From Escherichia coli (GTDB lineage Bacteria > Pseudomonadota > Gammaproteobacteria > Enterobacterales > Enterobacteriaceae): 64,000 nt of DNA. The translations under genes and the position numbers were made by a program. The stretch lies in assembly GCF_003334815.1 (NCBI RefSeq), contig NZ_QOWO01000004.1; one strand, 5' to 3'. Position 1 is the stretch's first letter; each line of letters starts with the position of its first letter. Below are positions 27,893 through 33,762 of this stretch, piece by piece. Under the pieces are notes generated by a model. That model saw nothing but the letters and a program-made list of their open reading frames with translations. It was not told the DNA's origin and did not search any database.

Positions 27893-28155
27893 AAGCCCGA
27901 CTCCCGCAAAGACTGACGCCAGACAGCCTCTGCCATAGATGTTTTCCCATCTTACATCTTAAATCAACCTTGAGTACTTTATCTTTCCTCAAAATATTGA
28001 TGGCTATATGCCTTTCTGACCGTCATTTCTAACTCCTTCTTTTGCTCTGCTATTATTGACTGAAAAGAGACTGCCACACATAATTTTATCAGTCCTTTCG
28101 ATTCAAACATGAAATCAATAAGTTCATCAGGTATATCTCAAACAATATGAAGACG
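27893..28155 (-). mobile_element. H-repeat (ISAs1-family) 3-prime fragment, about 260 bp
   Basis: Minus-strand translation [36 protein letters not shown] matches the conserved C-terminal region of H-repeat/ISAs1 transposases; nucleotide-level homolog of 32672-33066. Confidence 0.7.
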
Positions 28156-28341
28156 TATTTATTACTTCAAAAAACCACAATATCATACAAACAATTTCAA
28201 TATAACCAAAAGAAAATCTTTCTAAGATATAGATACATATATTATGAGGTAAATTTTTAAAGTGTAAAATTTGAGATATATCCACCATCTCACGGATACA
28301 TTCTATCTAGTGGATGTTTTAAATAAAACTTACAACGCAGT

Positions 28342-29472
28342 TTAAGACATATATCTTGTTAACGTATCAAGGTATATTTTTATTATTTTCCTTTCATCAA
28401 AATTTTTAATGATATAGTCCCGTCCTTTTTTGCCCATAGTTTCTTTTTCTTGTGGGGTGAGTTCAATAAATTTACGCATAACATCTGCCAACCCAATGTA
28501 ATCACGTACATTGCAAAGATATCCAGTTTCACAATCGACTACAACATCCTTGCAACCTACATTATTTGTGGTAATTATTGGCTTACACATTGATGAAGCT
28601 TCCATCAACACACGAGGAACCCCTTCTCTATAGAAGGAAGGTAAAACAATACAATCTGCGCCAATTATGTGCGGTCTAACATCACTTTCAACACCTAAAT
28701 ACTCGATAACACCTTTAATTTGCCAATTTTCAATTTCCTGTCTTGTAATCGCTCCGGGGTTTTGACTATCGCAAGCCCCCAGTAGCTGGAATCTAATGTC
28801 AGGAAACTCAGACTTTAGAATATTAGCAGCATCAATATATACACCAACTCCCTTTTCCCATAGCATCCTAGCTATAAGAAGAAATGTAATATTATCATTA
28901 TATTTAGTCTTGCACGAAACCTGGCTGGGAGAGAAATAACTGGTATCAACTCCTTCACTAGCCAGAATAAATGATTTACTCTCACTAATTATTCTTTTTC
29001 TCAAAAATACATTTCTATCATCCTCATTCAAAAACCAAACTTCTTTTGCAAAACGAAAAGAAAAAGCATATAATTGAGTTATAAACTTAGTCAGCAGTGT
29101 TTCTTTATTAAAAACAAATCCTAACCCTGTAGTTACCGCTATAGATTTACAACTTGTAATTCCAGCAGCTATAGATCCATATATATTTAGTTTGATTGTG
29201 TAATGAAAAATAAAATCAGGTCTTATTTTCTTATATATTTTTATTAGCTTTAATAATAACATTAAATCTTTAAGTGGATTTTTCCCTTGTGAGGAAACAG
29301 AAATTGATTCAAACTTACACCCTAAATCGACGATATTTTTCAAATGGTTATCTTCTGGAGCAACAATGGTAACATCATATCCTTTTTCAATTAAACTTTT
29401 TATTAATCCTTTTCGGAAATTGTATATCGACCAGAGTGTATTTGCGACAAGCAAAATTTTTTTACGAGGCAT
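28342..29472 (-). CDS. glycosyltransferase, GT4 family (376 aa)
   Basis: C-terminal motif SFYREGVPRVLMEASSMCKPIITT typical of retaining GT-B glycosyltransferases. Confidence 0.8.
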   Translation of the reverse strand: MPRKKILLVANTLWSIYNFRKGLIKSLIEKGYDVTIVAPEDNHLKNIVDLGCKFESISVSSQGKNPLKDLMLLLKLIKIYKKIRPDFIFHYTIKLNIYGSIAAGITSCKSIAVTTGLGFVFNKETLLTKFITQLYAFSFRFAKEVWFLNEDDRNVFLRKRIISESKSFILASEGVDTSYFSPSQVSCKTKYNDNITFLLIARMLWEKGVGVYIDAANILKSEFPDIRFQLLGACDSQNPGAITRQEIENWQIKGVIEYLGVESDVRPHIIGADCIVLPSFYREGVPRVLMEASSMCKPIITTNNVGCKDVVVDCETGYLCNVRDYIGLADVMRKFIELTPQEKETMGKKGRDYIIKNFDERKIIKIYLDTLTRYMS

Positions 29473-29481
29473 CTTTTATCC

Positions 29482-30417
29482 TTACTTAAACCATCCAATA
29501 ATAAACAAAACTTTAAAAAGCACATCATCAATGAACTTAACTCTTTTTACATGCCCGGAAAAAACATATCTCAATCTTTTCACAAGGCTTGCTTGAGACT
29601 CTACAAAACCATGACTTATTTCGTATCCTGCTTCTTTCTTATGCATTAAACAATATATGGAGACTAAATCCATTTGAAGCGATAGCAAATGCCTTCCATT
29701 TGACTTATATTTTTTGATCTGTTTAAATCTATTACACAGAATGTTCTTAAGACCAGACTTTATACCTACAACATTATTATCATGCTGCCTATAACTTAGG
29801 TAGCTATTATGGTCATATATTAGGTGGCCAAATGTTCTTGCCAATATTAAAAAAAACCAATCATGCATAACAATACGATTGGCAATATTGACTTCATTAA
29901 TATCCAAGTATAATTTACGTAAAGATTGGTTAAAGACAAAAGTACAACCTGGAGCACAATTCTCAATCAAAATATTGTTTAAAGAAAAATCACTCTGAGA
30001 ATTATAACGACCAATATGATTTAACTCTTTGTCAACATAGTTATATGAGGAGCAATATCCTATTGCTATATCTTGCTTATATTTAATAATCTCAGTTGTA
30101 GCTGCAATCAATTTAAGAGGTTCCCATATATCATCCTGATCGCAAAAAGCGTAATAGTCATAGTCTCCAACATTCTCAACCAACCACAAAAAACTGGCTA
30201 TGACACCAATGTTATCACCCTCATACAAAAATATAGAATCATCCTTTGATATATACTCTTTAATAATTTCACATGTTGAATCAACTGAACCATCATCTCT
30301 TATATGAATATGTAAATCGAAATCTCTATAGCATTTTGTTATTGAGTCCAATTGTTCGCTAATATACTTCTCCCCATTATAACTCGATAATAAAACAGCC
30401 ATGCTTTTTAATTTCAT
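29482..30417 (-). CDS. glycosyltransferase, GT2 family (rhamnosyltransferase-like)
   Basis: N-terminal AVLLSSYNGEKYI...DDGS motif of GT-A enzymes; start placed at the ATG (MKLKSMAVLL) downstream of the tool GTG start. Confidence 0.75.
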   Translation of the reverse strand: MKLKSMAVLLSSYNGEKYISEQLDSITKCYRDFDLHIHIRDDGSVDSTCEIIKEYISKDDSIFLYEGDNIGVIASFLWLVENVGDYDYYAFCDQDDIWEPLKLIAATTEIIKYKQDIAIGYCSSYNYVDKELNHIGRYNSQSDFSLNNILIENCAPGCTFVFNQSLRKLYLDINEVNIANRIVMHDWFFLILARTFGHLIYDHNSYLSYRQHDNNVVGIKSGLKNILCNRFKQIKKYKSNGRHLLSLQMDLVSIYCLMHKKEAGYEISHGFVESQASLVKRLRYVFSGHVKRVKFIDDVLFKVLFIIGWFK

Positions 30418-31647: not shown

Positions 31648-31725
31648 TACAATCTCATTTCATGATTAGGTTAAATGGCCATTATAAATTAATGTTTAGT
31701 TTAGTTAACTTTACCAATACGTTTA

Positions 31726-32646
31726 TCAAGAATTTGAGAAGTAACCTTTTCCCATTTTACCTACAACACCATCTTTTATTGCAGTCGCTAACAGCTTGAT
31801 TTTTTTTAACTTTGAAGAAGAATTAAGAGTATGGACAACAATAAATAACGGTAACCGGGTAAATAAATACAATCGATGATTAAATGAAAGTTTATCTTTC
31901 AGAATCAGATAAATTGAATTCCTGACTATAAAATAATGCCTAAAATCACTATGCATTATCACATTTTTACCCAATACTCGTTTTGCTTCATTTCCAATAT
32001 TGTGCATCATGACAATATCAGGTATAATATAAGATTGTAATCCCATCTTCTTCGCGCGTTCGCACCATTCGATATCAACGAAATCTATAAACAACTCCTC
32101 ATCCATAAGCCCGATTTTTTGCAGTACCTCCATTCGAATCAAGCTCCCTGAAGAAATTAGAAAATCTGTTTCAAGTGGATGAACACTATGACACAGCTTG
32201 ATTTTATAAAATGGTCTAATATGAATTGCACCTGTTATCTTTCCAGTTTTTTCATCCTTAAAGGCCGGACCTAAAACAGCAACTTGTTTTCCACTATTTA
32301 GAAGTACACGCTCATTAATTAGCAATGTTTTAATCATTTCTTCCGGAACGATACTGTCTTGATCCAAAAATAAAATATGAGATGCTTTCGATTTTTTGGC
32401 ATAATGAATTCCAATGTTCTGAGCTTTTGCAATGCCTAGATTGTAATTTAGTCGATAATGTTCAATTTTTTCTCCATACGACTCAAACTCAGAATCAGGT
32501 ATTTTTAAATTAGACTCATCTGTGTTGTCGATAAGAATAACCTTGTCTACTTGCATAATTATACTTTTCAGTAATCCATGTATGCGTACAATTTCAGGTC
32601 TGAAAAGGACCACTACTGCAATAATACATTTATCTTGTTCTGTCAT
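31726..32646 (-). CDS. glycosyltransferase, GT2 family (306 aa)
   Basis: GT-A fold signatures including an FLDQDS motif; likely rhamnosyltransferase type. Confidence 0.75.
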   Translation of the reverse strand: MTEQDKCIIAVVVLFRPEIVRIHGLLKSIIMQVDKVILIDNTDESNLKIPDSEFESYGEKIEHYRLNYNLGIAKAQNIGIHYAKKSKASHILFLDQDSIVPEEMIKTLLINERVLLNSGKQVAVLGPAFKDEKTGKITGAIHIRPFYKIKLCHSVHPLETDFLISSGSLIRMEVLQKIGLMDEELFIDFVDIEWCERAKKMGLQSYIIPDIVMMHNIGNEAKRVLGKNVIMHSDFRHYFIVRNSIYLILKDKLSFNHRLYLFTRLPLFIVVHTLNSSSKLKKIKLLATAIKDGVVGKMGKGYFSNS

Positions 32647-32671
32647 GTTTTACCTCAGGGCAAGGTTACTA

Positions 32672-33762
32672 AAGCCCGCGCCCCGCAAGGACTGACGCGA
32701 GCTAGTCTCTGCCATAGATGTTCTTCTCATCTTACGTGTAAACTCTGTCTTAGATACTTTATGCTTCTTCAAAATATTAAGGCGATATGTCTTATGAATT
32801 ATGCCTGGATATAATTCTTATGCATTTCCTCTTCTTATTTTGCTGTCATCTTCATTCATTGCCACATCCAGACACCAGTGCAACTTACTCTCTTGGTGCC
32901 AGTGGTTTCGAATCGCTGATATAATATCTGACCGTCATTTCTGGCTCCTTCTTTTGTTCTGCTATTTTTTACCGAAAGTAGTCTGCCACGCAAAATTTTT
33001 TCAGTCCTTTTCATTCAAATGTGAAATCAATAATTTCATTAGGAATATCTAAACAATATGAAGACGGATTTTTTCTCTGTCGCGACTCTTTCAGTAATTA
33101 CGTAACTGTCATGCTTTGGATTACTTAATTCTTTCAGAAGAAAATTTACTCAAAGGCTTTATTAATCCGCCCCTGATTTCCTTTTACTGCGAATAAATAA
33201 TCGACTCCCTGTTTTTGTATCTTTTCTGCAAAATCATTCTGGCACCCCAGCGCATCAGTTGTAATAATTTTTTTTAATATCTAAATGTTAATTAGTTGAG
33301 GGATAGCTGTAATCTCAGTGGATTTCTCATCTGTCTTGATCTGTCAGAGAACAAGACTGAGCATTGTTGAGAACGCTCTAATGACATGAATCGCTTCTTT
33401 GCGGCGAGTTTTTTCATAAGAGTACCGGAGCGTTTTTCGAACTATAGCAATGACGTCTTTTTCATTTGACGAATGGAAATCCCTCATCCAGTTAATAATG
33501 CACTCGTGAAATTTTGCAGGAGTGATACATGATACAATTCTGGCAATGGTAACGAGAACAGGAATACCATTTTCTAAATCACTATATTACTTAAAAAAAC
33601 AAAATATGTCTCACCAAATCCTCTATATCTTCCGAACCTTCTGTACCAAAAATGACGACACAAATAGTCAACAGTAGTATATATGACAATTTATGTTTCC
33701 CTTTTCAGGCTTGTCTGTAATCGGGGATAATAGAAATATATTCCATCAATTTTTAGTACCAT
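32672..33762 (-). pseudogene. H-repeat (ISAs1-family) transposase, near full-length but inactivated by frameshifts and stops
   Basis: Minus-strand pieces in different frames match the ISAs1/H-rpt transposase along its length: N-terminal [18 protein letters not shown] and [32 protein letters not shown], middle [34 protein letters not shown]-terminal segment shared with 27893-28155. Confidence 0.75.

Follow-up and report, generated by a model that had tools for sequence, protein, structure and literature searches.

The O-antigen gene cluster of Salmonella group D2 was reportedly recognised as a hybrid by Xiang, Hobbs and Reeves in 1994. It combines the clusters of groups D1 and E and carries the remnant of an H-repeat at their junction (PMC3715488). 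In Escherichia coli, replacement associated with insertion sequences (IS) has been reported for the O-antigen clusters Gp14-Gp16 (Iguchi et al. 2015; PMC4379981) and for O24/O56 (PMC7685785). Here we analyse a stretch of 64,000 nucleotides of E. coli DNA (contig NZ_QOWO01000004.1; hereafter the window), which encodes on its minus strand an O-antigen cluster lying between galF and gnd, and which contains two decayed H-repeats of the ISAs1 family, referred to as copy A and copy B. Read from the galF side, the order is rmlBDAC, wzx, wecB (also called mnaA), a glycosyltransferase (GT) gene, copy B, a GT2 gene, wzy, a second GT gene, a GT4 gene, copy A, a gene of the sulfatase/lipoteichoic acid (LTA) synthase family, gnd and ugd. 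We consider it probable that this cluster is a hybrid, in which a 5' part of an O1-like cluster type has been joined to a 3' part of the O10 type, and that copy B is the scar of the join. The O1-like type is designated P1 (our own label); its reference locus is L006 and it was found in 13 genomes.

Comparisons were made to O10-type loci (L003-L005 and L016-L019, with L017 from Citrobacter sedlakii) and to P1-type loci (L006, and L020 from Salmonella). BLAST homology to O10 falls into two blocks: the first is contiguous from 22001 to 28015 at 93-95% identity and takes in wzz, ugd, gnd, the sulfatase-like gene and the 3' end of copy A; the second runs from 28166 to 32655 at 90-92% and holds the GT4, GT, wzy and GT2 genes. 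This second block ends at the last base before the right inverted repeat of copy B (32655/32656). On the other side of copy B lies a segment, at 33906-37676, containing a GT gene, mnaA and wzx, that has no counterpart in O10. It is 88-91% identical in nucleotide sequence to P1, and the P1 homology, which begins at 33915, 9 nt from the left end of copy B (33905), extends to 42000 at 91% overall. Both homology breakpoints (32655/32656 and 33905/33915) are thereby placed 0-9 nt from the ends of copy B, and both copy B junctions are confined to the same nine of 20,395 complete E. coli records.

The encoded proteins divide at the same place. The products of the GT4, GT, wzy and GT2 genes are 85-94% identical to those of O10; the GT, WecB and Wzx proteins of the other segment are 87-90% identical to those of P1, and RmlC is 96% identical to P1 compared to 73% to O10. 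WecB matches TIGR00236 as an equivalog. The order of genes in P1 (rmlBDAC-wzx-mnaA-GT-wzy-GT2-GT4-gnd in L006) is the architecture of O1, in which mnaA and the adjacent GT gene share 68% nucleotide identity with the pair in the window. P1 resembles the described OgN10 cluster and may correspond to it; OgN10 has been serologically typed as O1 and its cluster is similar to that of Salmonella O42 (PMC4873512). The arrangement in the window is that of a D2-type hybrid: the 5' and 3' segments are each collinear with a different cluster type, and the IS remnant sits on the homology breakpoint and is absent there in both parental types, no IS being present at the copy B site in any of the O10-type or P1-type loci compared.

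Copy B is a complete but dead element resembling ISEc1. Both terminal inverted repeats are kept (CAGGGAAAGATCA... at 33905 and ...CCTTGCCCTG at 32656); as expected of the ISAs1 family, repeats of the form CAGGGnAAGAT... bound what was a single open reading frame (ORF) in an element of approximately 1.2-1.3 kb (1250 bp, compared to 1291 bp in ISEc1, with 85.4% identity). When an intact ISEc1-like transposase of an O10 strain is compared to the window by tblastn, its residues 5-378 match positions 33752-32668 in three frames. The frame is disrupted by 12 frameshifting indels and seven premature stops, and the conserved AIDGKT motif has become AIVRKT; once repaired, the translation matches the Pfam domains DDE_Tnp_1_assoc (2.8e-21) and DDE_Tnp_1 (1.3e-13). 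Neither copy A nor copy B encodes the intact transposase of a potentially active element, and both are inert today. An earlier note on this DNA had read the two as ISAs1-family H-repeats on the minus strand in the same orientation; the transposase and Pfam matches agree with it, as does the RefSeq annotation of a nearly identical genome, where both copies are entered as pseudogenes of ISAs1. Alignment to reference elements fixes the ends and deletions of both, and while the copies themselves are real their extents differ from those first given (32672-33762 for B and 27893-28155 for A; the revised limits are in Table 1).

The gnd-side junction of copy B can be read base by base. The window has ...CCTTGCCCTG/AGGTAAAACATGACAGAAC where O10 has ...GCAAATAAAAT/AGGTAAAACATGATAGAAC (the slash marks the junction), and the spacer that separates copy B from the GT2 gene is, on this alignment, the sole remainder of the O10-type upstream spacer. 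It measures 9 nt up to the ATG at 32646, and not the approximately 25 nt previously proposed. No target-site duplication is found beside copy B: its flanks, ...TTCGTCTCC and AGGTAAAAC..., share no k-mer, as would be expected if the two flanks derive from different molecules. The element has no close counterpart elsewhere in E. coli (the next best match is 84% identical). H-repeats in general occur in 98% of genomes at a median of five places per genome. Copy B differs from ISEc1 by 0.16 substitutions per site, roughly one half of the value for synonymous sites between the window and O10. Assuming little change in the active ISEc1, this is consistent with an age for copy B close to that of the split from O10. 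A sequence resembling a left inverted repeat (AAAGATCATGGAGCG in L006, 11990-12030) is present at or next to the insertion point and also just outside copy B (window 33906-33930); its local alignment was no better than that of shuffled sequences for two of three queries, the third giving 11/500. The likeness of this site to the flank of the Rhs-borne ISEc1 is equally weak.

The history that we favour is as follows. The 5' part of the cluster (galF, rmlBDAC, wzx, mnaA and one GT gene) descends from P1, and the 3' part (the rhamnosyltransferase gene, wzy, two GT genes, an old H-repeat remnant, the sulfatase-like gene and gnd) from the O10 type. The join might have been made by recombination between two H-repeat copies, or by a transposition-mediated fusion or adjacent deletion anchored on a single copy, in line with the model put forward for Salmonella D2 (PMC3715488). 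In either case it would have exchanged the O10 genes rffA, wzx and an adjacent uncharacterised gene (hyp) for wzx, mnaA and a GT gene.

Three observations weigh against this history. Firstly, among the sampled genomes there is no H-repeat at either parental site, and for that reason the intermediate is hypothetical. Secondly, synonymous divergence (dS) is 0.25-0.39 to O10 and 0.40-0.47 to P1; with identities of approximately 90% (dS 0.25-0.47) the nearest 'parents' would appear to be cousins and not donors, and a search for closer ones, using Wzy and the P1-type GT to query a collection of 5.8 billion proteins, returned nothing between 87% and 100% identity. Thirdly, the absence of a target duplication could in principle be due to decay. 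A different possibility is that ordinary illegitimate or homologous recombination produced the seam and that an H-repeat inserted there by coincidence at a later date, its duplication having since decayed. In its favour, copy B is old and heavily decayed, H-repeats are abundant, and spacers within these clusters often contain IS (O10 strains have IS1, IS5 and nested H-repeats). Gene-less gaps are found at sites equivalent to the flanks of copy B, in L019 (4364-5305; 942 bp between hyp and the GT2 gene) and in Salmonella L020 (9069-9883; 815 bp between the GT gene and wzy); neither has a match to H-repeats and they may be remnants of other elements. However, a later insertion normally leaves the spacer of one lineage on both sides, and here the breakpoints coincide with the very ends of the IS. 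Moreover, with flanks that have diverged by approximately 10%, a duplication of 8-11 bp should still be visible, and none is seen. A coincidental insertion is on balance unlikely, although it retains some weight.

That copy A does not mark the join is apparent from its own history. This fragment lacks ISEc1 positions 1-841 and 991-1153 and retains only the right-hand inverted repeat, in degenerate form; the ISEc1-like transposase matches it at 28158-28015 (residues 235-282, E=2e-19) and at 28013-27900 (residues 337-375; both tblastn). In O10 strains the sulfatase-like gene is separated from an acetyltransferase gene by an intact ISEc1-like element, which is nested in or abuts an older partial H-repeat. 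The insertion site and outer flank of copy A (GATACAATGCTGAATA) are those of this partial H-repeat and of a near-complete decayed H-repeat in L016; an H-repeat is present at the site in L018 as well. Since it shares site and flank with these older copies, and reaches 90 bp further towards the 5' end than the O10 partial copy, copy A descends from the old element and not from copy B; on this alignment it is older than, and unrelated to, the copy B join.

The common ancestor of the O10-type clusters possessed an H-repeat between the acetyltransferase and sulfatase-like genes, of which the lineage of the window has lost the 5' two-thirds. Position 28166 of the window aligns to 11226 of L005, which lies 77 bp before the point where the acetyltransferase gene of O10 begins, and position 28163 aligns to ISEc1 position 842: a single deletion took this O10-type gene along with the first 841 bp, at the 5' end, of the old element. 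In C. sedlakii the acetyltransferase gene, the H-repeat and the sulfatase-like gene are all absent. The copy A site is an IS hot spot in O10 (L003 8345-10002; L004 9598-11508; L005 8916-10461), with pieces of the older H-repeat both 5' and 3'. Depending on the strain, there are also insertions of IS1 and IS5, and deletions of the cluster that were mediated by IS5. H11, considered as a third variant, was rejected as such, being an O10 cluster with an IS5-mediated deletion.

These data also bear on the proposal of the earlier note that the two copies are direct repeats bracketing a module that was assembled or exchanged by recombination between them. Its gene content was given correctly (GT4, GT, wzy and GT2, the last a TIGR01556 rhamnosyltransferase), and at first sight the arrangement invites such a reading: the backbone transferase genes and wzy are precisely what lies between the two ISAs1 remnants, which point the same way, and each remnant stands at an edge where O10-specific genes are missing. 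Insertion or exchange of the four genes and two H-repeats as a block, whether as a composite transposon or through the repeats, is nevertheless largely refuted and must be judged very improbable. Homology to O10 does not stop at copy A but goes on beyond it, across the sulfatase-like gene and gnd, and copy A is orthologous to the H-repeat at the same site in O10, L016 and L018. In several O10-type lineages and in Citrobacter the four genes are not a separate block, but are contiguous with rffA-wzx-hyp, with no IS at the copy B site. A composite transposon is further contradicted by the lack of a left end in copy A, of target duplications and of more than a single context; in no genome is the block excised or transplanted.

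Nor do the repeats resemble a pair. Copies A and B are 80.6% identical (225/279, with an internal gap of 133 bp in the alignment), and each resembles other H-repeats (82-85%) at least as closely as it does its partner; nowhere do the two agree exactly over more than 16 nt. Repeats of this identity, with so short an exact run, offer too little for efficient RecA recombination today. The end motif that both had been thought to share, aaacaatatgaagacg, is the point of truncation in A but is internal in B (33051-33066), which continues for approximately 840 bp beyond it. What survives of the proposal is the footprint of assembly itself: copy B lies on a boundary of ancestry and copy A marks a loss of O10 genes. 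It does not survive as a four-gene module bounded by both repeats.

The direction of change was assessed with further loci of O10 order, located by means of Wzy homologues in a large protein collection. The full order (rmlBDAC-transaminase-wzx-hyp-GT2-wzy-GT-GT4) is found in L016 (Wzy identity 75%), L018 (86%), L019 (59%) and C. sedlakii L017 (58%), none of which has an H-repeat at the copy B site; the P1 order is found also in Salmonella enterica (GT identity 69%). As in a D2-type hybrid, the parental arrangements are the older: both occur in other genera, while the mixed order is known from one group only, with identity of at least 99%. Old orders that cross genera, set beside a mixed order restricted to one tight group, argue that the cluster in the window is the recombinant, and we regard it on this comparison of gene orders as the derived hybrid. 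The reverse (an ancestral window order from which the O10 and P1 types each arose by replacement of one side) is the least credible alternative, for although a three-way comparison alone is unrooted, with divergences that are all similar and deep, the complete O10 order is present in C. sedlakii and three other diverged lineages and the P1 order in S. enterica and O1, and none of these relatives has an IS at the seam.

Table 1. Features of the O-antigen cluster, in window coordinates (dN/dS, ratio of nonsynonymous to synonymous substitution; aa, amino acid identity).
Feature	Position	Strand	Basis or remark
O-antigen cluster, galF to gnd (E. coli)	galF ~41.4 kb; gnd 24647-26053	-	
ops element GGCGGTAGCGT in the galF-rmlB spacer	41091-41101	-	76 nt upstream of rmlB start
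Non-O10 segment, P1-type (GT 33996-35069; mnaA/wecB 35135-36271; wzx 36283-37560)	33906-37676	-	nucleotide and protein identity to L006
Copy B, complete but dead ISAs1-family element (H-repeat, ISEc1-like)	32656-33905	-	multiple alignment with two intact elements
9-nt spacer AGGTAAAAC, copy B end to GT2 ATG	32647-32655	-	junction alignment with O10
GT2 rhamnosyltransferase, first gene downstream of copy B	31726-32646	-	O10-type, 91.5% aa; dN/dS 0.10
wzy, O-antigen polymerase, EpsG family	30604-31647	-	85% aa to O10 Wzy; dN/dS 0.25
Glycosyltransferase	29482-30417	-	O10-type, 93.6% aa; dN/dS 0.11
GT4 glycosyltransferase	28342-29472	-	O10-type, 94% aa; dN/dS versus O10 0.10
Spacer downstream of GT4	28164-28341	-	gnd-side edge 28164/28165 is the deletion junction
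Copy A, 286-bp 3' remnant of H-repeat	27878-28163	-	ISEc1 positions 842-990 and 1154-1291
Sulfatase/LTA-synthase-family gene, between copy A and gnd	26191-27819	-	92% aa to O10 homologue

The whole cluster is present, at 99-100% identity, in the nine records that share the copy B junctions. These represent eight strains, from humans, cattle and wastewater on four continents (Viet Nam, Switzerland, Ecuador, Italy, Panama, China, Canada and Germany). Comparison to O10 gives dN/dS values of 0.10-0.25 for the four bracketed genes, a sign of purifying selection, and the GT2 product scores 230.6 bits against TIGR01556 (cut-off 200.55). Six of the nine records have the four genes with undamaged ORFs. 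In EC102 (L010) a frameshift affects wzy alone among the cluster genes; in N18-04097 (L013) and G5 (L014) many cluster genes (wzy, wecB, rfbC, rfbA and others) are fragmented or frameshifted, which looks like assembly error rather than biology.

The genes downstream of copy B lie behind 1.3 kb of untranslated IS DNA. Promoter-like and terminator-like matches between 27.5 and 34.2 kb are no commoner than in shuffled sequence, and copy B contains no convincing terminator, only one weak hairpin. Upstream of rmlB there is an ops (operon polarity suppressor) element. Taken together, these findings make it likely that the four genes are transcribed by read-through from the promoter of the operon, which is situated upstream of rmlB, with the transcript probably protected across the IS by ops/RfaH antitermination. 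At the junction itself, the last G of copy B and the retained spacer form GAGG (32653-32657), a Shine-Dalgarno-like motif 6 nt before the GT2 ATG, where O10 has AGG only; the junction thus appears to have kept the ribosome-binding site and marginally lengthened it, and GT2 is probably translated from a GAGG that straddles the end of the IS.

Most of the spacer between wzy and the GT gene is occupied by a perfect tandem array of the 7-bp unit GCATATA (15.9 copies, 100% matches, 30485-30595), which begins 9 nt past the stop codon of wzy. Among the nine related records the longest uninterrupted stretch of perfect units ranges between 7 and 21 copies, and O10 clusters have no such array at this site. 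It is a hypervariable variable-number tandem repeat within the O-antigen operon, and might additionally tune expression of the O antigen.

The exchange has consequences for the sugars that the cluster can be expected to supply. Missing from the window, compared to O10, are rffA, the O10 wzx, the uncharacterised gene adjacent to it and the hexapeptide-repeat acetyltransferase gene. The O10 rffA product is an equivalog of dTDP-4-amino-4,6-dideoxygalactose transaminase (560 bits), and 4-acetamido-4,6-dideoxygalactose (Fuc4NAc) has been reported in O10 alone, as a side branch only (PMC7685785). The lost transaminase and acetyltransferase would accordingly have served synthesis of dTDP-Fuc4NAc, and the uncharacterised gene adjoining wzx may encode its transferase. 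In their place are mnaA (UDP-GlcNAc 2-epimerase equivalog), a P1-type GT gene homologous to that adjoining mnaA in O1, and a P1-type wzx: genes that would provide N-acetylmannosamine (ManNAc), while the backbone transferases and polymerase of the O10 type would have been kept. The simplest prediction is an O antigen with the O10-type backbone and polymerase linkage in which ManNAc stands for Fuc4NAc. More tentatively, and with rather less confidence than we attach to the hybrid origin itself, the cluster may specify an undescribed O antigen with the O10 main chain and polymerase linkage and a ManNAc side branch, made by one ancient exchange anchored on an H-repeat together with a deletion adjacent to another. 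The sulfatase-like gene, which has weak similarity to phosphoglycerol transferases and annotated starts that vary between genomes, might serve to modify the O antigen, or some other envelope glycan, with a phospho-substituent; it is common to O10, L016 and L019 and absent from P1-type clusters.

Neither a name for the present O genotype nor a description of this O10-related hybrid was found in the literature searched, and NCBIfam has no serogroup-specific wzx or wzy models by which to type the cluster. If the proposed structure is correct, then typing wzx and wzy separately would give inconsistent calls, with wzy appearing O10-like and wzx like that of the O1-cross-reactive type. The cluster would in this respect help in reading mixed wzx/wzy calls in genome-based serotyping, and offers predictions, on structure as well as cross-reactivity, for an O type that appears to be without a name. 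It would represent a clean case in E. coli of a new O serogroup arising when a conserved module for backbone and polymerase acquires a different side-branch module, the IS scar locating the crossover to a few bases. The tolerance of an O-antigen operon for untranslated DNA, here 1.3 kb of it, is likewise put to a natural test.

In its transposase family, its CAGGG... inverted repeats and a length of about 1.29 kb, the element behind these remnants is that of the ISEc1/H-repeats of the E. coli Rhs elements (yhhI, ydcC and ybfL), from which the remnants differ in their state (B is 85% identical and dead, and A a fragment) and in that neither is associated with Rhs. IS1358, likewise of the ISAs1 family, occurs in the O-antigen regions of Vibrio cholerae O1 and O139, loci at which serogroup replacement has taken place; its role there is only inferred. 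The likeness to our cluster is that of an ISAs1-family element inside O-antigen loci, in another genus and at another locus. Gp14-Gp16 and O24/O56 share with it the presence of IS at the places where clusters that are otherwise alike differ by the replacement or loss of glycosyltransferase or wzx genes; in those cases, however, the IS are others (IS1, IS629 and ISEc11 among them) and the paired clusters are nearly identical.

The closest parallel is Salmonella D2. There, as here, two cluster types have contributed, one the 5' part and the other the 3' part with wzy and a transferase gene; a decayed ISAs1-family H-repeat lies at the seam in the orientation of the operon; and side-branch genes derive from one parent, backbone and polymerase genes from the other. 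The two differ in age, in that the segments of D2 are nearly identical to D1 and E, and hence recent, whereas the relatives of the present cluster are approximately 90% identical and its IS is far more decayed. They differ also in the second, older H-repeat remnant and the extra deletion found here, as well as in species and sugars. H-repeat scars at hybrid junctions were already established by that case; the cluster described here reveals no new mechanism, and is a new, older and well-resolved example.

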